Of a stretch of 64,000 bases of DNA, positions 2,801 through 64,000 are shown in pieces. The number at the start of each line of letters is the position of its first letter. The stretch's first letter is position 1. The translations under genes were made by a program, and so were the position numbers. The notes beneath the pieces are model-generated. The model was not told the origin of the DNA. It made no database searches and saw only the letters and a program-made list of their open reading frames with translations. Source of the DNA: a virus; UHGV virus genome UHGV-1370141, one strand, 5' to 3'.

Positions 2801-4120
2801 TTACGTTGTGGATGTAAAATTTTCATTAGTCAGCCACAACGTCAACTGACTAATGGTATTAAACCGTGGTGATGCCGCTGAACCACCATCAATTGCACCT
2901 TGGAAAACTTCTGCAACTAATGTTCCGTAACGCGTGTATACACCATAGTTATTCGCATAAATGTATTTTACTGCCATCCCAGGACGGAGTAAGCCGTACG
3001 TTGATGCGTTCCAGGTTGTTGCTGTTAGCGTCCCTTTCGCCGCCGCCAACTTAGACCGTTGCGGTTTATCTGTGTCCGAGAAGTGTTGGTTCGGGTCTAT
3101 TGGTGCGTTAACTACCCCACCTGGATATTGCGTCGGATCAGCCGCTGACACGAACGAATCTGACGTTGTAGCAGAAACATCGCCTGACGAGAAAGAAGAC
3201 GCACGGCCATCCAACGCACGGATAGACCCCACACGATAACCGGTACCTTGGTTTAGTGCTAGGGAGTCTTTATCTTCGAAGGTGTGGACATCACCACCAC
3301 ATATCAGGTAAATCACGTCACCGTCAATGTGGCAGGTCTTATTCAGATACGCTGCTTTCTCTTTCGGTAGGTTTATAATCACCAGCTTATTCTTCGCTGA
3401 TGAAAACTTCTTAGAGTCCCAAGGTTGGAAAATATACCAACGGTGTTTGTAGAGGAACACCCCCAGCCCTTGGCTATAAACCCCGTAACGATTCTGAAGG
3501 TAATCGAACACAGACAGGAAACTTTCCGAGTCAGGAATCAAAATATCCCGATAGGGCTGTTGCTCCTCTTCCTCGTACTCCACACCCACCAACTGACCTT
3601 CTGGCGCATCACCAGTAGGTAACGTATCTGCCAACAGTGCACGAACAACACTAAGGCCATCTGTCTCGTGATAAATCCCACCGACTTGACGGCAACGTAA
3701 GAACCACATCGACTCGTCCATCAACTCCAGGGTGACGACCGCTAACGCTTTCTGGTCAGACTCACCTAAGAACATCGTGGGCGATTCCATATCGGGATCG
3801 TGGTTGTTCACGACGATACCCCGATAGTCGAGTTTCGCAACGGTTTTCTTGTTCATTGTCCGCATTAGAATTTTCACAGACAAATCCCCGTCTGCGGAAG
3901 ACGTTAACACACGCTGTTGGCTTAACGGTATCATCACGGTAAGATGGGTGATAGTCGTTAAGTCCTGTGCGAAGTTACTGGCATGGATTATCGACAACGT
4001 TTTAAATACGCTGATAACTGTCCCACGTACCGTAATGATAGGTACGTATTCGATGGCCGGTAATCCCGCCGCTTGTGCAATATGCACGTTTGCTATGTTC
4101 TGTAACCGACCAAACGACAT
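2801..4120 (-). CDS. hypothetical protein (439 aa)
   Basis: ORF track, tightly packed in operon. Confidence 0.6.
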   Translation of the reverse strand: MSFGRLQNIANVHIAQAAGLPAIEYVPIITVRGTVISVFKTLSIIHASNFAQDLTTITHLTVMIPLSQQRVLTSSADGDLSVKILMRTMNKKTVAKLDYRGIVVNNHDPDMESPTMFLGESDQKALAVVTLELMDESMWFLRCRQVGGIYHETDGLSVVRALLADTLPTGDAPEGQLVGVEYEEEEQQPYRDILIPDSESFLSVFDYLQNRYGVYSQGLGVFLYKHRWYIFQPWDSKKFSSAKNKLVIINLPKEKAAYLNKTCHIDGDVIYLICGGDVHTFEDKDSLALNQGTGYRVGSIRALDGRASSFSSGDVSATTSDSFVSAADPTQYPGGVVNAPIDPNQHFSDTDKPQRSKLAAAKGTLTATTWNASTYGLLRPGMAVKYIYANNYGVYTRYGTLVAEVFQGAIDGGSAASPRFNTISQLTLWLTNENFTSTT

Positions 4121-45904: not shown

Positions 45905-46492
45905 TTAGCAGGACGCACCAAGTTCTGAACAGGGATCTTCATCTTCCCAGTCAAAACTTCGCATACGTGCCCAGTTAATCTGCATGTCAACTTGCTGAAC
46001 GCGAGTAAGTCGATTGGAGCGATCTTCGTTGGATACCCAGTTCCAGATACGATCCTCGTCGTACTCCGTTGACATACCTGACGTAACTTCACGATAGTTA
46101 TCGTCAGTGTGCATGTACGCCGAGCCTCGGAATCGGTCTACCTTAGAGTAACCGTTCTCAAAGCCCGTCGCCATGTTATTGTTGTAGAGCTGTCGGTATT
46201 CCGGCATTGCAATTAAGAACGGTTGTAACGCCTCATTCGCAAACTGGAATTGCCCGATAGTTTCAAGTTGTCTTACTACATTCGTTGCATCGCTATTTTG
46301 AACCTTACGCGCAGCTGCGTACATTTCGCGGAAACGTTGCAATGAGATCAGTTCATTACACTTCTGCTTCACGCGCTCAACCATATCCGGTGCGAAACTA
46401 GACAGGTTAAAGTTCTCTTTGAAATAACGATACATACCGCTATTTTCGTCTTGACGCTGCCAAATAGACCCGCCTAGATTCCACATGCCCAT
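45905..46492 (-). CDS. hypothetical protein (195 aa)
   Basis: ORF track; terminator hairpin GGGGC-CGAA-GCCCC downstream. Confidence 0.55.
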   Translation of the reverse strand: MGMWNLGGSIWQRQDENSGMYRYFKENFNLSSFAPDMVERVKQKCNELISLQRFREMYAAARKVQNSDATNVVRQLETIGQFQFANEALQPFLIAMPEYRQLYNNNMATGFENGYSKVDRFRGSAYMHTDDNYREVTSGMSTEYDEDRIWNWVSNEDRSNRLTRVQQVDMQINWARMRSFDWEDEDPCSELGASC

Positions 46493-46498
46493 GTTTTA

Positions 46499-48456
46499 CT
46501 ACCCCGCCATTAAGATTAATTCTGAGTCGATGGCGATACCCGCCTCCAGATCTTCTTCGGTATCGCGTAAGAAACGGTTTTCCATGCTGATAAGCTCATT
46601 GTGTAACACCATGCTGCTAGACACTTCGTCTACGTTTGTGCTGGACATAAATCCGTTATCTGGGCGATAAGCCAGCGCCAAATCCATCTCCGTGGTATCG
46701 ACTAAAAGTCTAACCTGTAATTGGTCGCCGTCGAAATCCTGTTTGTCCACTCCATTCCTTTTGGAGCAGGTGTGCAATGACACCCTCCCATGTTTTCACA
46801 TGGGCACAGACTATATCATAACCGTAGGTATTGCTACCCGTAGGTCTCCCCCACTTCGCCGCTAAACTAAGCAGCTACTCTACTCGGTTTTACCCTTTCG
46901 ATAGTCGTTGAACGATTTTCATCGCTGCTGGTTATCCATTATCACAACCCTTAGCATTATTGGTTAGCATAGGCTATCTTACGAATTGTTTCTGACTTTC
47001 GCCACCCTGTCGGGATCGTAAGCTTTAGGAGTTTCCAGCAATTCGAGGGATACGCACTAGAGGTTTCCCGTCTAGTGGGCCAAATTTTAGCATTCGGAGC
47101 TTTGATGACGCGATCGGAGATACGTAACGAACACTGTGTAACATCAGGGTTAACAGCTGAGATAAATAATGTCTGAATAGACAACTGTACAAGCGTCGGG
47201 TTTCGTAGCGCTGATATCATCAGGCCGTAACCGCCACGAGACTCCTTAATAAGTTCGTTGATAATTTCATGAACCAACGGTACGTACTGCATTGATGCAA
47301 ATGCAATAACACGTTCACACTGCCGTGGTGTGAAGTTCCGTCGACCGAGTTTGTTTTCAATAGCTACAGATTCTAACGTCACTAGCCAACGCCAAGGTGC
47401 AATAACCTTCATAGCGTCATGCGGTTCTGAGATTGGAGAGATTGTTACACGACCACCCCACGGGATGTGTGTTGAACCTAACTTGGCACGATAGAATCCA
47501 GGTTTACCTTCCATCACCTCCTGACGATGGTCAATATAGAAGTACGCTAACTGGCGATTTGCTTTTAATGCGCGACTAATAATGAAATGGGTTGGGATGC
47601 GTCGTGCATTAGTATAAAGTAACGCGATGTTCTTAACCGCGTCTATTGCACCGGTATAAACAGGATCGATAAAGATACCCTGACGTCGTTCCTCCGTAAC
47701 GATCAGTTTGGGTGAAATGATTGGAAGATGAACCGGAAAGAAAGTGTGTGATTGTTCTTCGAAGAACTTTTTCCACTCTAAGCGAGTACGTTCGCTCTCA
47801 TATCGGTTATTTTTCGTTGGTGGATAAATTTCTTTCCAGACTTCAGGAGAAGTTAAGATATTGAATATTGTTCGATGGTGGTCAATAAAATTCCTAATGC
47901 CGCGTGGAACTTGATACTCGCTAAAGATACGTTTGATTATTCGGGATCGAGTACCTTCGTCTTTATCAGGTTTATAGCACGGATCTAACATCCACATCAA
48001 TAAATCAGAACCACGTTCTACGGTCACTTTGTTTCGGTTAAACTTCTTAAGTTTAGAACCGAAGAAAGCGTTAAACATCGACCAGAATCGTGGGTTAATA
48101 AAGTTGCCTATTTCCTCCGGGGCACGAATCCAGACTTCTGAAACAATACGATGTTCTGTCACTACATAGCCGCAGGTAGGACATCGCATACCGAGATTAT
48201 ATCGATGAACGATAGGTGCTTCACAATCAATACTACAAATGGGTGCCGAATTTAGCGTCTCGTCGACTGTCCGGTTCTGTAAGATTCGGTTAATCAACTC
48301 TGACGTCTCAATGGTGTCTTTATATTTCGCAACATCATTGATAATCATCGGCGGTTTATAGCCCTTTTCCTCCGCCTCTTTGAAAGCGTCACGTAACATT
48401 TTATCGTGACTGATTAATCGCCCTGATACACCGAAGTATTGTAATCTGTCTTTCAC
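46499..48456 (-). CDS. RNA polymerase beta'-like subunit, N-terminal module; intron-interrupted (exon 1 ~47150..48456, exon 2 46499..~46783)
   Basis: exon 1: Zn finger CSIDC...CPTCG, GKPGFYRAKLG...GGRVTISP, ISALRNPTLVQLSIQTLF; exon 2: HTCSKRNGVDKQDFDGDQ ... FMSSTNV. Confidence 0.65.
46784..47150 (-). other. group I self-splicing intron (no internal ORF)
   Basis: minus-strand GTTCAACGACTA (R-like) and GATATAGTCTG (S-like) P7 elements, P9-like hairpin before exon 2, frame change between exons, no RBS; boundaries approximate. Confidence 0.65.
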
Positions 48457-60601: not shown

Positions 60602-60638
60602 AAAAAAGAATATACCTACCTCCTTTCGGAGGTAGGTA
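60602..60638 (-). terminator. terminator hairpin
   Basis: A-run then TACCTACCTCC-TTTC-GGAGGTAGGTA. Confidence 0.55.
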
Positions 60639-60740
60639 CGTTCCCTGGCATCGGCATGAAACTACAGGATTAAACCCTTCAGGGCATGAGAATGGGCATT
60701 CTCGAAGGGCGGGCTTTAGCTTTCGGCAGAGCTAAACTGG

Positions 60741-61388
60741 TTATCTCAGGTTATCGATGGTTTTACCTTCACTGTTCATGATGTAAACCGCATCACCTGG
60801 ATAGAAAAATTCGTAAGCATCGTCGACATGTAACACGCCGATAGCCTCGTCAACAGAGTGCTTACCGCTACGGAGCTGATTCTGATAGAAAGTATCACCG
60901 TCTTCGTTGATCAACTCGCGGACTAATTCGACTTCTTGAGATGGAATTGCAAAAGACATCTCTTCTAGGGTAAACCCTACAAAACGGCACACAAAGTCGA
61001 CTGTTACCCCAGGAACATAAATTTCATCGACGGACGTTTCTCCGGTATCCGGATTAAACGGTCGAATAAAAACGACACGTCCAGATGGTGAGGTAGCTTT
61101 CTGTCCTGGAAATGCCCAGGCCCAACCGTCGGTGTTTTTCAGAAATGGGTAAATGGCAGTCAACGTTGACGCTATAAGCAGAGGATCTAACCCTATCAGG
61201 GTCTCATACTCAATCCGAGTGGGTTTTCTCGGCAAATCGATGGCGCTGTTAAAACATAATTCGTTATTTTCGCCGTTAACGACTTTAAGTGCTTCTTTGT
61301 AAACACGGGACATTTTGTCACCTAAACGTACACGTTCGTGTACAGTGATGACTCGATCACCGTTAATGATACGTTTAACTGTAAGCAT
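60741..61388 (-). CDS. hypothetical protein (215 aa)
   Basis: ORF track. Confidence 0.55.
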   Translation of the reverse strand: MLTVKRIINGDRVITVHERVRLGDKMSRVYKEALKVVNGENNELCFNSAIDLPRKPTRIEYETLIGLDPLLIASTLTAIYPFLKNTDGWAWAFPGQKATSPSGRVVFIRPFNPDTGETSVDEIYVPGVTVDFVCRFVGFTLEEMSFAIPSQEVELVRELINEDGDTFYQNQLRSGKHSVDEAIGVLHVDDAYEFFYPGDAVYIMNSEGKTIDNLR

Positions 61389-62041
61389 TTCTGTTACCTC
61401 GTTCTGTTACTACTACTCGTTCTGTTGTACGTCGCTATACCCCGACGTGTGGGTTAATGGGACGCGTTGAACGTCTGTTGAGGCGCAGCAGGCAGTGGCA
61501 GCAATGACAGCAAGGGCAGCAATGGTACAAACGCCAACGCGAATAAAAAACGCTACTGTCACTGAACACAGCTTCAGAATACTGACAATAACGCAAAAAG
61601 GGTGTCGCTAACGGGTGTCGAGCCCCAGCCTCGGTGTGTAGCCACGTCACCAGGCATAGCGACAAAGTTCGGTACTGGTCAAACACAGCATGACATGGGA
61701 CGATGAAGGTTTACAGGTGATCATCGACCAGTACCGTCGAGTTAACACGTAACTCTCAATTCACATTACAGGGTATTCACGTTACACTTAGGGGAAATAC
61801 CCAATAATTAAATTCTTGGTGGGTGCAGGTGGGAGGTTTTATCCTCCCACCGTACAACCGTTTAGGTGGTCTAACCACCAGGGTCTCACGACCCTAACGT
61901 AAGTCCGAACTTAATCGGTAGGTGTTTACACGTTTTTAAGGAGCTTTCTACCCGTGAGCAAGAGCAGAAGTTATCAGAACAACCGACGCTCAGTTGAAGG
62001 CTGACGAGTTTGTAACTCTTGTTCGATTGCTCTAATCTGGG

Positions 62042-62114
62042 CGACCAATGGCAGGATTCGAACCTGCGAAATAACCGATTATTAGTCGGGTGTTAATTCC
62101 TCTAACTTCAATGG
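62042..62114 (-). tRNA. tRNA-like gene, possibly degenerate (anticodon loop reads as AAU)
   Basis: hand-folded cloverleaf: T-arm GCAGG-TTCGAAT-CCTGC, D-arm GTTA/TAAC with GG loop; but A at position 8, a U-U acceptor mismatch and a C-U anticodon-stem mismatch. Confidence 0.4.
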
Positions 62115-62124
62115 TCTAAATCCA

Positions 62125-62625
62125 TCAAAACAGCTTAAGTGATTGCGTTTGTCCGCCGCTGTACAGGTCGTAACGTTTCGCCACTTCCACCGCAGTGGGG
62201 GCGTCAACGCCAGCGCCTAATGCACCCAGGGCATAGTGAGCACCTGAGCCTATCGCATACGGTGGCTCTACAAACACGTAACTGGCGTATTTGTTGTCTT
62301 TGCACTTCGAGGCATCAATAACACGCCCGTCTGTCAAAACAGCAAGTACGATAAATTCAATCTGTTCGGGATACGTCGTTTCAAAACGAACCCCACCCCG
62401 TTCGATACCGCCGAAACGTTCAAGCGTGAGTTCTTGACGCACGGATTGCAATGCGGCGACATCACCTGCCAAACCAATCGCTTTCACGTCCTCACCCAAA
62501 AGCTTCCACGTCGTACCCTCAGGCGGCGTGTGAATCTTACGGTATTGCGTAGCAGCGCTTCGCTCTTCCACGGTGACTTGGCCATCGCAAGCTAACGTCT
62601 TTCCGTCAAAAACAATCGTGGTCAT
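62125..62625 (-). CDS. hslV: HslV-like Ntn-hydrolase peptidase (proteasome beta-type)
   Basis: MTTIVFDG...ACDGQVT...GLAGDVAA...AIGSGAHYALGA matches HslV MTTIV...AGDGQ...GFAGG...AIGSGG pattern (recalled); start overlaps upstream stop (TAATG). Confidence 0.65.
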   Translation of the reverse strand: MTTIVFDGKTLACDGQVTVEERSAATQYRKIHTPPEGTTWKLLGEDVKAIGLAGDVAALQSVRQELTLERFGGIERGGVRFETTYPEQIEFIVLAVLTDGRVIDASKCKDNKYASYVFVEPPYAIGSGAHYALGALGAGVDAPTAVEVAKRYDLYSGGQTQSLKLF

Positions 62626-62969
62626 TATGGCGAACCCCAATCCATGATGAACGTAGCCATGCACTGCTCGGCGTGTTTCATGATAGCTTTGTGCAAGCAT
62701 CTCTGAACCGCTGAGAACAGGTAAGGCCGATAACACACATGCGACTCCTTGGGAGACGGGGTGTGAGTAACCAACTGACCATCGGTGAGTTTAACACAAA
62801 CCGTAACAAGCTCTGTGTTTCGCCAATGGTTCACTGACACTGTCTCGATGCAGTTTAGCAGCGACGAATCATAACAACCCCAATTCTCGGGCGCTTTTAG
62901 CAGCCTGCCCAATTCATCGAGTCGGTACGGGACATTCGAACCGATGTTCGGAACGTCTTTGGAATCCAT
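62625..62969 (-). CDS. hypothetical protein, translationally coupled to hslV-like gene
   Basis: start moved to MDSKDV ATG preceded by GGAG; track start 63065 lies in ORF-poor sequence. Confidence 0.4.
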   Translation of the reverse strand: MDSKDVPNIGSNVPYRLDELGRLLKAPENWGCYDSSLLNCIETVSVNHWRNTELVTVCVKLTDGQLVTHTPSPKESHVCYRPYLFSAVQRCLHKAIMKHAEQCMATFIMDWGSP

Positions 62970-63649
62970 ATTAAAATCTCCTGCCGTGGTTTGTGTCACA
63001 CCAACAGGAAACTCTGTAAAAAATAATTCAGCTGCGTACCGGCGTTTCTCAACGGGAGTACGCACCCCTCTCGTCTTTGCGAGCCGTCAAGCTAGAGGAC
63101 ATCACACTGCCAGCGCTACCTGGAGCAGGGTTGTTTCGACGCAACGTCGTAATTCGGATTCTGGCCGCACCTCTGGGAGCGCATCCCACCGTCGGCTGCC
63201 CGCAGGTAAGTTCTACGGACCTCTCGCCAACGTCGCCCCCAGAGGCTGCCACGGTTCACTCGGATTTTCTCATGTCGGCCACGCGTCGCTGATAGCGCGG
63301 CTTCCCCCAAACTTCGTAAGTCGCGGGAACGGTACCGAGCACCTGAATTCGTGGGGTTTACCAACCCCTGAGGTTTTTATCCGAAGTCACGGAAACCCCA
63401 TAGTAAAACAAACCGCCAGTGTTAGGCCGAACGTTTTGTTTTTCCCAGCACACGGTGAACTAAAATCCATGCACTTGAAAAAACACCCCTGGCCAATAAC
63501 CAACCAGGGGGTTCGAGCTCTGCTGAATCATCGCAGACAGTAATCGTGTTGAGCTGTGAGCAGTAATACCTGAACTCCGAAAAATCTTCGTGGTTGTAAA
63601 TCAACCCCACGCAAATCCTCCGAACATACCATAGGGTTTTAACGTTCGG

Positions 63650-63858
63650 AAAAGGGGAATGGGGGTTTACCCCTTGGGTCAGGTGTTCAGGATCTCCCCG
63701 GAAGGGTAACCCCTACCCGATCCCCCAGGTGGGGATTTTACCCTGGCGAATTACCCCGGGTACGATTTTCGGTTTTTCCGGAAAATACCGCTCACCGATC
63801 CCCACCCCCTCACCGGGGGTCAGAGCGAGATCAGATCTCATAATAAGGATCGCGCGCG
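63650..63858. repeat. GC-rich cluster of short palindromes and G/C tracts
   Basis: GGGGAATGGGGG, CCCCAGGTGGGG, TTTTCCGGAAAA (perfect 12-bp palindrome), CCCCACCCCCTCACCGGGGG, GATCGCGCGCG; no credible ORF. Confidence 0.45.
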
Positions 63859-63977
63859 TTTTATATATATTTATATATAATATATATTATATATAATAAT
63901 TATATTATTAATATATTTATTTAATATATTTATATTTATTAAAATAAATATATATTAAAATATATAATTAAATAATA
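63859..63977. repeat. 119-bp tract of pure A+T
   Basis: no G or C between ~63859 and ~63977; TATATA/ATTAT-type low complexity. Confidence 0.7.
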
Positions 63978-64000
63978 CCAAAAGGTATTATTATTTTGAT

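Follow-up and report, generated by a model that had tools for sequence, protein, structure and literature searches.

What is encoded in a stretch of a jumbo phage genome where almost no open reading frame (ORF) can be found? In the 64,000-nucleotide (nt) stretch of the virus genome UHGV-1370141 that was analyzed here (hereafter the window), an ORF-poor gap spans positions 61389–62124, from the gene of a 215-amino-acid (aa) protein to the stop codon of an HslV-family gene. A sequence-only reading had reported in this gap a dubious Cys-rich ORF, short repeats, a strong hairpin and a transfer RNA (tRNA)-like element, possibly diverged or decayed, and it had supposed that other small RNAs may be encoded as well. 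The joint account that we consider rather probable is that, on the minus strand, a selected phage tRNA of the Ile2 type with a mutated wobble base is followed by a long structured 5′ leader of the 215-aa gene, which belongs to the family of gp262 of Salmonella phage SPN3US. Related assemblies are given below by number (L001 etc.) where they have to be told apart.

A phage tRNA gene with anticodon AAU

Two of the checks that had been proposed, ARAGORN and Rfam, called the tRNA-like element:

62040–62116, minus strand: atypical tRNA gene, anticodon AAU (AAT at 62083–62081), called by ARAGORN

It was the sole tRNA that ARAGORN found in the 64-kb window. The Rfam model RF00005 matched 62115–62043 on the minus strand over model positions 1–71 with a full cloverleaf, and the score of 40.1 bits (E = 5e-5 for the 64-kb window) was above the gathering score of 29. 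The non-canonical features, the AAU anticodon and the canonical T-arm that had been described were all found again, and only the strand had to be corrected to minus. The T-arm (GCAGG-UUCGAAU-CCUGC) is nearly palindromic, so that it could also be seen on the plus strand.

The acceptor helix of the window tRNA has 8 base pairs (bp), comprising G-1:C73 and seven pairs that include a U5.U68 mismatch. A8A9 are found in place of U8, 27.43 are unpaired, the variable loop has 6 nt, and the anticodon loop is CUAAUAA. The 3′ sequence is C-G-C-C without an encoded CCA, and the tRNA would therefore have to be completed by the host CCA-adding enzyme. The features of a canonical elongator tRNA, namely U8, a 7-bp acceptor with unpaired −1/73 and an encoded CCA, are absent. 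The element is a tRNA by every structural test and ‘Ile’ by its anticodon only; the Prokaryotic Genome Annotation Pipeline (PGAP) types the copy in NZ_CP173450.1 as tRNA-Ile.

The window tRNA has relatives in other phages. The tRNA locus of SPN3US and Erwinia phage pEa_SNUABM_9 (pEa9) is situated between the HslV gene and the counterpart of the 215-aa gene; it comprises a tRNA-Trp and an 80-aa gene, followed by up to 15 further tRNAs. BLAST against the fetched loci revealed an unannotated copy of the window tRNA in SPN3US (85% identical, at about 2999–3075), which has the anticodon CAU and scores 30.6 bits with Rfam, and pEa9 also has a copy. The identity of the window tRNA to the Salmonella-phage copies ranged from 85 to 92%. 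The RefSeq record of SPN3US (L001, NC_027402, 2929–3076) misses the family tRNA at about 3001–3072 and draws the ‘hypothetical protein’ gp263 over the opposite strand, and the neighboring ‘tRNA-OTHER’ is a pseudo-tRNA with an anticodon loop of 3 nt.

A family alignment (A6) of 15 distinct sequences was compiled from BLAST, a pattern scan and further loci. Nine of the 22 cloverleaf pairs changed on both sides, compared with 0–3 in slid controls, and 90.9% of the cells were paired (n = 15). G-1:C73 and A1-U72 were present in 15/15 each, while the neighboring acceptor pairs varied freely. Family-wide, U8 was absent (AA or CU was found there), 27/43 were never paired, and C73 was followed by N-C-C instead of an encoded CCA. 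U8 and an encoded CCA were present in each of the 26 other tRNAs from two related clusters, among which only tRNA-His had the −1:73 pair. The copies in pEa9, ChrisDB and L071 (L002 13461–13556, L077 and L071) contained an insertion of a ~24-nt hairpin, which forms a long variable arm, and they were missed by ARAGORN. In the copy of Erwinia phage Huxley (L100 3571–3645), the anticodon loop is CCCAUAC, where the near-universal U33 and A38 are both C. The D-arm, the anticodon stem, the G-1/A1-U72/C73 end and the locus with the HslV and gp262 homologues are common to the window tRNA and its relatives. A mutated copy of tRNA-Trp was also considered as its source, and the alignment with the tRNA-Trp of the same slot in relatives showed no special similarity.

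The idea of a decayed tRNA did not survive, since the stems covary in a conserved family and the gene is far better kept than its surroundings. Between the window and L004, the most divergent genome with an AAU tRNA, 1 of 74 nt differed in the tRNA, compared with 86 of 635 in the HslV gene and 38 in the first 247 nt downstream. The tRNA was thus ~10-fold less diverged than its flanks, which were 13–15% different (Poisson P about 4e-4). It therefore looks selected and not decaying, and we conclude that the gene is genuine and under selection, in a tRNA family that is specific to phages and atypical in structure.

The anticodon is what distinguishes the clade of the window in this family. Nine assemblies of the clade, one of them the window, have A34, and the only variable site among these AAU copies was the never-paired position 43, besides a change of G-C to G.U in the T-stem of L004. 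All family members outside the clade carry the anticodon CAU. Such members have been annotated as ‘tRNA-Ile2(cat)’ (pEa_SNUABM_29) and ‘tRNA-Ile’ (Proteus phage 7), and ARAGORN types the CAU copies as Met. The sequence comparison indicates that the wobble base in the clade mutated from C34 to A, starting from CAU relatives typed as Ile2, i.e., as lysidine-dependent readers of AUA. This mutation would free the tRNA from the host TilS, as lysidine would be neither needed nor receivable, and it would also end the recognition of CAU by methionyl-tRNA synthetase (MetRS). The AAU tRNA would then most likely be an isoleucine tRNA that forms Watson–Crick pairs with AUU, the commonest Ile codon of the phage (AUU 31.2, AUC 24.5 and AUA 4.8 per 1000 codons in the window). 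Processing by RNase P and at the 3′ side of the tRNA would also generate the 5′ end of the RNA that follows.

The identity elements can be compared with published rules. The determinants of isoleucyl-tRNA synthetase (IleRS) include U12-A23 and C29-G41, and A1-U72 is an antideterminant for MetRS (PMC9976931). In the family, A35, U36, A37, A38, U12-A23 and C29-G41 are invariant, so that the N-A-U anticodon and the minor determinants of IleRS are present by the same rules (PMC9976931). The window tRNA is homologous to phage tRNA-Ile2 genes, but it has A at the wobble position and is thus neither a substrate of TilS nor an AUA-specific reader. Without the C34 of the lysidine type it should not be filed as Ile2, in spite of its homology to genes so typed. 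It also differs from these relatives in that, within the clade, it is the sole tRNA and directly follows the HslV gene.

Several observations weigh against the decoding of isoleucine. The E. coli IleRS determinants A73, C4-G69 and G34/lysidine-34 are replaced by C73, A4-U69 and A34, and G-1/C73 is the bacterial histidine signature (PMC9976931). Elsewhere, A34 occurs only in tRNA-Arg (and, in some bacteria, tRNA-Leu), in which it is converted into inosine by TadA (PMC8266599). Because TadA has been reported only on tRNA-Arg/Leu and the anticodon loops differ, deamination of A34 in the window tRNA is doubtful. The codon usage of the phage shows no special need for a reader of AUU or AUA, and the sister genomes L005, L084, L085 and L086 lack the AAU tRNA and have tRNA-Trp(CCA) instead. 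In these genomes, the slot 62040–62124 holds another cassette (L005, 3949–4325; L084–L086), which consists of tRNA-Trp(CCA) and an 86-aa gene (PHROG 5444, a homologue of SPN3US gp264). At ...ATTAGA, either cassette passes into the same leader. The tRNA-Trp cassette was looked for in the genome carried by E. coli and was absent, which indicates that the two cassettes are alternatives.

Adenosine is encoded at the wobble position in both the window tRNA and the A34/I34 tRNAs, i.e., bacterial tRNA-Arg(ACG) and eukaryotic tRNA-Ile. AAU is the anticodon of the eukaryotic tRNA-Ile gene, and after deamination it reads AUU, AUC and AUA. The anticodon loop of tRNA-Arg2 is CUACGAA, compared with CUAAUAA in the window tRNA. 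Wobble A outside tRNA-Arg is almost absent in bacterial systems, and the tRNA(AAU) of an E. coli/Enterobacter phage represents a natural experiment. One mutation appears to have converted an AUA-reading, TilS-dependent tRNA, which poses the question of the role of an unmodified or deaminated A34 on the bacterial ribosome. The invariant His-like acceptor end together with the missing CCA provides a test case for the site choice of RNase P and for the identity rules of synthetases, in a tRNA family that has been missed or mis-annotated in reference genomes.

A probably structured stretch before the 215-aa gene

Past the tRNA, the gap continues for 651 nt (61389–62039), referred to here as the spacer. 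From 5′ to 3′, the following elements were distinguished in it, the helices being predicted:

61389–62039, minus strand: whole non-coding, structured (putative leader) region, from the tRNA to the 215-aa start codon
61973–62036, minus strand: 5′ domain, a 14-bp helix (62036–62023/61986–61973) round two small hairpins, 4–7 nt past the tRNA 3′ end (RNAalifold, pair counts)
61896–61972, minus strand: nearly invariant 77-nt stretch CUUCUGCUCUUGCUCACGGGUAGAAAGCUCCUUAAAAACGUGUAAACACCUACCGAUUAAGUUCGGACUUACG (columns 82–160 of alignment A4)
61821–61895, minus strand: three consecutive hairpins (61895–61880, 61879–61865 and 61859–61821), the last being the GTGGGAGG hairpin
61670–61736, minus strand: long-range 12-bp helix (61736–61725/61681–61670)
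61603–61664, minus strand: central branched domain, helices 14–17, absent in L086 (nhmmer, A4)
61464–61540, minus strand: 14-bp helix, the loop with an 18-nt direct repeat of CAUUGCUGCC units
61410–61452, minus strand: terminal leader element, hairpin 61448–61429 (ACGUCG-GGGUAUAG-CGACGU) and then ACAACAGAA (alignment A7)
61389–61428, minus strand: purine-rich leader, predicted to be unpaired; contains AACAGAA(C) three times and, at 61399–61396, the Shine-Dalgarno GAGG

The folding of the spacer and the substitutions in its relatives make it very probable that the spacer forms a structured RNA in the gene sense, although its full architecture is only partly established. The sense strand had a folding energy of −218 kcal/mol and z = −3.94 against dinucleotide shuffles (651 nt). 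The antisense strand had z = −3.33, and two coding controls of equal length gave +0.39 and −1.13. The consensus folding energy was −167.7 for the sense strand vs. −138.3 for the antisense strand. Of the 164 pairs predicted by RNAalifold, 15 had changed on both sides, a result that compared very favorably with the shuffle and slide controls. Coding alignments gave equal compensatory counts, so that the RNAalifold count alone is no evidence, and it was replaced by a single-sequence structure test. In this bias-free test, the structure was predicted from the window sequence only, and the substitutions of the relatives were then scored on the predicted pairs:

Spacer, sense strand: varying pairs kept canonical 35/70; changed on both sides 16
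Spacer, antisense strand: varying pairs kept canonical 22/66; changed on both sides 7
Two coding controls combined, sense strand: varying pairs kept canonical 87/307; changed on both sides 17

When the spacer sense strand was compared with the coding controls, Fisher P was 7e-4 for the retention of canonical pairs and 4e-5 for changes on both sides, values that are indicative only, as the pairs are not independent events. Many of the variants replaced G-C or A-U by G.U, as is compatible only with an RNA of the gene sense. The best-supported helices were 1, 2, 7, 8, 9, 13, 20 and 22. Helices 13 and 22 displayed stepwise compensation, with a G.U intermediate in one relative and the completed change in others.

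In the 5′ domain, both sides changed between two alleles at columns 25/72, 29/68 and 35/47, and A.C intermediates were found at 22/75 and 26/71. Most of the 77-nt stretch that follows is unpaired or belongs to long-range helices with weak support. The three hairpins underwent both-sided changes of U-A to C-G, G-C to A-U and A-U to G-C, besides G.U variants that form pairs on the minus strand only. The strong hairpin that had been pointed out earlier, GGTGGGAGG-TTTTAT-CCTCCCACC, was confirmed at 61828–61851 with 9 bp, and an AT-rich palindromic segment lies at 61792–61814. The long-range 12-bp helix had at least 7 substitution events, 1 of which was disruptive, and one path within it led in two steps from U-A through U.G (L004) to C-G (L084 and L085). 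A split nhmmer match and alignment A4 showed that L086 is without ~160 nt of the center (about 61560–61719), and this central part therefore appears to be dispensable. In the 14-bp helix, C-G to U-A and G.U to A-U changes were observed, and the loop length varied among relatives through indels of 17–18 nt. The short repeats that had been reported were also present on the plus strand: GCAGCAATG, the counterpart of the CAUUGCUGCC units of the minus strand, at 61498–61506 and 61516–61524 with a period of 18 nt, and GTTCTGTT, the counterpart of the AACAGAA(C) repeats, at 61401–61408 and 61419–61426.

Some results speak against a conserved structure or limit its extent. The compensatory pairs that RNAalifold found in the coding alignments amounted to 22/237 and 18/216, compared with 10/148 in the spacer. 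The contrast between the sense and antisense strands reached only P = 0.06, and half of the varying pairs of the minimum free energy structure were broken in some sequence. The comparison was small, with about 13 sequences that form two main alleles (alignment A4 of the spacer region contains 11 of them), and many ‘compensatory’ cells therefore represent single events. The long-range closing helices 4 and 5 carried almost no informative variation.

The 3′ end of the spacer ties it to the 215-aa gene. Phages of the SPN3US and Erwinia type have their own stretch of 240–490 nt free of coding sequences (CDS), which extends from the last tRNA to the gp262 homologue. It contains three helices rich in both-sided changes, and the last one is homologous to helix 22 of the window. 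The shared element comprises a 6-bp stem with the 8-nt loop GGGNNNNG (GGGUAUAG in the window), followed by ACAACA(G/A)(A/U)AGAA. In an alignment of nine sequences from both groups (A7), 6/6 pairs changed on both sides and 94% of the cells were paired. A covariance model of this element (R1), built from 9 sequences with the window sequence among them, scored 56.5 bits at 61452–61410, and the next best match in the 64-kb window scored 9.1 bits. Each of 16 related loci gave a single R1 match, and it invariably lay immediately upstream of the gp262-homologue gene; by definition the element lies 20–60 nt before the start codon, as it does in the window. The element has been kept across clades whose proteins are only 25–38% identical. 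SPN3US and pEa9 have similar purine-rich leaders as well.

The structured region reaches to about 20 nt before the 215-aa start codon, and no terminator was found between the non-coding region and this gene. The hairpin is gene-specific, the purine tract is unpaired up to GAGG/AUG and a terminator is lacking; a 5′ leader is therefore the best-supported description. The gp262-family gene is thus probably preceded by a long 5′ leader of ~620–650 nt that is highly structured and contains a conserved hairpin resembling an operator. Such a leader would stabilize the downstream mRNA and/or control its translation, and the conserved terminal hairpin would probably be a recognition site for a protein or an RNase. 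Because very distant jumbo phages have this hairpin in common, it points to control of one gene at the post-transcriptional level, in a phage group whose gene regulation is poorly understood.

The Cys-rich ORF had rightly been doubted. Neither this 83-aa ORF (61686–61435, minus strand) nor the overlapping 49-aa hydrophobic ORF (61562–61413) was retained as a gene. Their GTG starts were lost in L004, L084, L085 and L083 (A4), indels of 17 and 1 nt shifted their frames, and the ORF boundaries varied from genome to genome on both strands. The PGAP annotation of NZ_CP173450.1 contained nothing in the spacer. The supposition of other small RNAs held in so far as the stretch is non-coding and rich in RNA structure; it appears to form one long structured region, and no sign of a set of discrete small RNA genes was seen.

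Rfam found no family beyond the tRNA, either in the window at the gathering threshold or in 61300–62200 at E ≤ 10. No family was found in the most divergent homologue L083 at E ≤ 1, and in SPN3US only tRNAs were found. The cis-regulatory leaders of Rfam (riboswitches, T-box and r-protein leaders) gave only sub-threshold chance matches, e.g., Fluoride with 11.5 bits vs. 34. Hidden or decayed tRNAs in the spacer were rejected, as the Rfam tRNA model at E ≤ 10 gave only the one tRNA. Homologues of the spacer were searched for in the SPN3US and Erwinia loci by blastn and nhmmer (single-sequence and profile), and none was significant except at the 3′ hairpin/leader; the 5′ 560 nt of the leader had no homologue detectable by blastn or nhmmer outside the clade. 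A scan of genome contigs with an 18-mer of the spacer gave 25 chance matches and 1 true match (a mis-binned contig), and the matches of a 14-mer scan of viral contigs were mostly chance. The promoter-like motif AATTTAATTATTGG, considered as a possible repeat, occurred once in the window, and scans of the region for sigma-70-like promoters and terminators remained at chance level.

SPN3US has another CDS-free stretch of ~780 nt (L001, 2154–2930), which runs from gp264 to the pseudo-tRNA. The first ~25 nt of this stretch are similar to the beginning of the leader as it occurs after the gp264-like gene in L005, which suggests that the window leader might have arisen by fusion of parts from two ancestral non-coding regions.

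Known systems and rival explanations

The proposed leader can be compared with the large RNAs ROOL and GOLLD of phages and prophages, which are multi-helix non-coding RNAs (ncRNAs) of several hundred nt found beside tRNA genes (PMC12286853); this is a resemblance only. An alternative that we consider unlikely is that the ~620 nt are a free, trans-acting large ncRNA, i.e., a new class that is comparable to ROOL/GOLLD, which assemble into complexes of RNA only, and that is released by tRNA processing. The size of ~560–620 nt, the many helices and the strong thermodynamic stability would fit this explanation, as would the location: the RNA directly follows the 3′ end of a phage tRNA, and relatives have up to 17 tRNAs at this locus. 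The 77-nt near-invariant core is mostly unpaired, as expected of tertiary or intermolecular contacts, further long CDS-free stretches exist in the same SPN3US locus, and ROOL and GOLLD are ‘often near tRNA islands’ in phages (PMC12286853). However, the leader fails both the ROOL and GOLLD models, and no other Rfam family matched it even at E ≤ 10. Its structure extends to ~20 nt from a start codon that the region abuts, and its last hairpin is specific to the same gene in distant phages. The lack of a terminator before the gene, the narrow phage clade and the dispensable 160-nt center also argue against a free RNA, and the covariation support is far weaker than that of ROOL and GOLLD. Read as a leader, the region is an added candidate on the short list of large structured RNAs beside phage tRNA islands.

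Leaders and operators of phage T4 share with the proposed leader a conserved hairpin and loop 40–60 nt upstream of AUG, an unstructured purine tract, a Shine-Dalgarno sequence and the restriction to one gene. The leader of T4 gene 32 has a structured nucleation site and then an unstructured stretch to the ribosome-binding site, and T4 gene 43 has an operator hairpin. The window leader differs in that it has no sequence relation to them, is about ten times longer and follows a tRNA. The stable RNAs species 1 and 2 of T4 (rnaC and rnaD) are discrete RNAs of ~120–140 nt encoded in the T4 tRNA gene cluster. The likeness here lies in non-tRNA structured RNAs that are co-transcribed and co-processed with phage tRNAs, although the window region measures ~620 nt.

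A second alternative concerns the tRNA, and it appears improbable to us: the tRNA would not be an ordinary Ile decoder. Either it would be charged by histidyl-tRNA synthetase (HisRS) or otherwise with a non-Ile amino acid and recode or poison translation, or it would be a non-translational mimic, such as a decoy for anticodon nucleases with a drifting loop. The G-1:C73 pair, which is kept in 15/15 beside freely varying pairs and is shared in the two clusters with tRNA-His only, favors the first form. G-1 and C73 are bacterial His determinants, and the transplanted pair gives a minihelix His acceptance (PMC9976931). The anticodon loops that differ within the family (CAU, AAU and CCCAUAC of Huxley) suit a mimic, and changes in the loops of phage tRNAs that escape host tRNases have been hypothesized (PMC10264068). 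Against charging with His, HisRS also uses the GUG anticodon (PMC9976931), and AAU is found here and CAU in the relatives. U12-A23, C29-G41, A37, A38 and A1-U72 fit the Ile type, and one CAU member has been assigned to Ile2 by an annotation based on tRNAscan-SE. Insertion of His where Met or Ile is encoded would moreover harm the phage itself. As for a decoy, we know of no nuclease that targets tRNA-Ile2.

The likeness to tRNA-His lies in the G-1:C73 pair, which is found in the family as in the phages’ own tRNA-His. The likeness to bacterial tRNA-Sec (8/5 acceptor/T helix) lies in an acceptor of potentially 8 bp stacked on a 5-bp T stem. The window tRNA differs from both in its anticodon, which is AAU or CAU in the family and not GUG/UCA, in the N-C-C after C73 and in the absence of a 6-bp D stem.

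A bolder proposal would be that either the ~620-nt RNA, along with the SPN3US-like CDS-free stretches, is a new RNA class that is tied to the adjacent tRNA(s), set free by tRNA processing and active in trans in the way suspected of ROOL and GOLLD, or the tRNA family is a non-standard adaptor (with a mismatched synthetase or an extra-translational role) that was retargeted by the change of CAU to AAU. We regard this proposal as doubtful; if true, it would mean new biology of translation or host takeover in jumbo phages. At present, nothing is categorically new: the tRNA is an unusual variant that looks functional, and the leader matches no described RNA family. The searched papers on SPN3US-like phages describe neither the peculiarities of the tRNA family nor the leader. 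Even if all is ordinary, the annotation is corrected for one tRNA, two false ORFs and one leader element.

It is still less probable that the spacer is functionless debris of a larger tRNA array and deleted genes, with the AAU tRNA as a recent pseudogene. Relatives do hold arrays of 10–17 tRNAs at this locus together with pseudo-tRNAs, such as ‘tRNA-OTHER’ in SPN3US and an aberrant 94-nt one in Huxley. Cassettes have often been swapped or deleted there, most clade members are 92–99% identical, and the covariation count of RNAalifold was no better than that of coding DNA. However, the spacer contained no second tRNA-like match at E ≤ 10. Its pairing was kept significantly more often than in the coding controls, and more on the sense strand, and its z values were well below those of the controls. 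The terminal hairpin covaries fully across very distant phages, and the ~10-fold lower divergence of the tRNA relative to its flanks also argues against debris.

That the region acts as DNA, i.e., as a replication origin, packaging site or promoter cluster with hairpins as cruciforms or protein-binding inverted repeats, is very improbable: several public assemblies begin 1.7–2.6 kb upstream of the 215-aa gene, SPN3US is numbered from the same locus, both spacer strands fold better than shuffles, and the AT-rich palindrome is present, but G.U pairs and substitutions would be C.A mismatches on the other strand and irrelevant for duplex DNA, the sense strand is favored in energy and pair conservation, AATTTAATTATTGG is unrepeated, and the sigma-70-like and terminator scans were at chance.

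Genome, relatives and neighboring genes

The window is part of a jumbo phage of Enterobacteriaceae of ~222 kb, a distant relative of SPN3US. No near-identical match was found among deposited phage genomes, and the window proteins showed 25–39% identity to those of SPN3US and Erwinia jumbo phages. The close relatives at 92–98% DNA identity are IMG/VR and metagenome contigs of 220–228 kb, as well as two circular ‘plasmids’ of bacterial isolates and one contig binned into a ‘Bacillota’ metagenome-assembled genome (MAG). The ‘plasmids’ belong to E. coli 98232, a urine isolate (L079, NZ_CP173450.1, circular, 221,873 bp), and to an Enterobacter ludwigii gull isolate (L127, NZ_CP134650.1, circular, 222,441 bp); the phage contig in the MAG bin is JAEWFE010000254.1 (L126). 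The deposition of such genomes as plasmids suggests persistence of the jumbo phage in a carrier state or pseudolysogeny, or contamination, and the MAG contig suggests mis-binning.

On the minus strand, which carries the tRNA and all of its flanking genes, the order is 146-aa ORF, HslV-family gene, tRNA, non-coding stretch, 215-aa gene and terminator:

62125–62628, minus strand: HslV-family peptidase gene (ORF list; tblastn to the HslV-family genes of SPN3US/Erwinia phages; PHROG 1040, E = 2e-35)
60741–61388, minus strand: 215-aa gene, homologue of SPN3US gp262 (PHROG 17697 and 1453, function unknown)
60612–60639, minus strand: strong intrinsic-terminator-like hairpin of 12 bp with a U-run, closing the transcription unit

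The start of the HslV-family gene at 62628 was set from 167-aa homologues in L005 and L079. Its stop (62125) lies 8 nt upstream of the tRNA, and the tRNA is therefore most likely co-transcribed with it. The 215-aa gene is a mosaic, in which the first ~55 and last ~70 codons are nearly identical within the clade and the middle has been replaced. Its overall identity among clade members was 58–82%, and only the termini are common to it and SPN3US gp262.

Another long stretch precedes these genes. It comprises 63066–64000 of the window (minus strand) and continues past the window end (L079, 1405–3118), so that ~1.7 kb in all precede the 146-aa ORF and the HslV gene. No credible ORF was found in this ~1.7-kb stretch from 63066, and PGAP annotated none. 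The part 63066–64000 folds stably (z = −3.1); its substitution pattern was no better than that of the coding controls, hence no structural claim is made for it. The ~1.7-kb stretch contains short pieces that are 72–86% identical to the CDS-free first 1.2 kb of SPN3US, compared with only 25–39% for the proteins.

A group I intron was found at 46787–47099 (minus strand) of the window, where the full-length Rfam model scored 63.7 bits against a threshold of 50. It lies between or overlaps the long ORFs 45905–46492 and 46957–48399 among minus-strand genes, which suggests a phage gene split by an intron.

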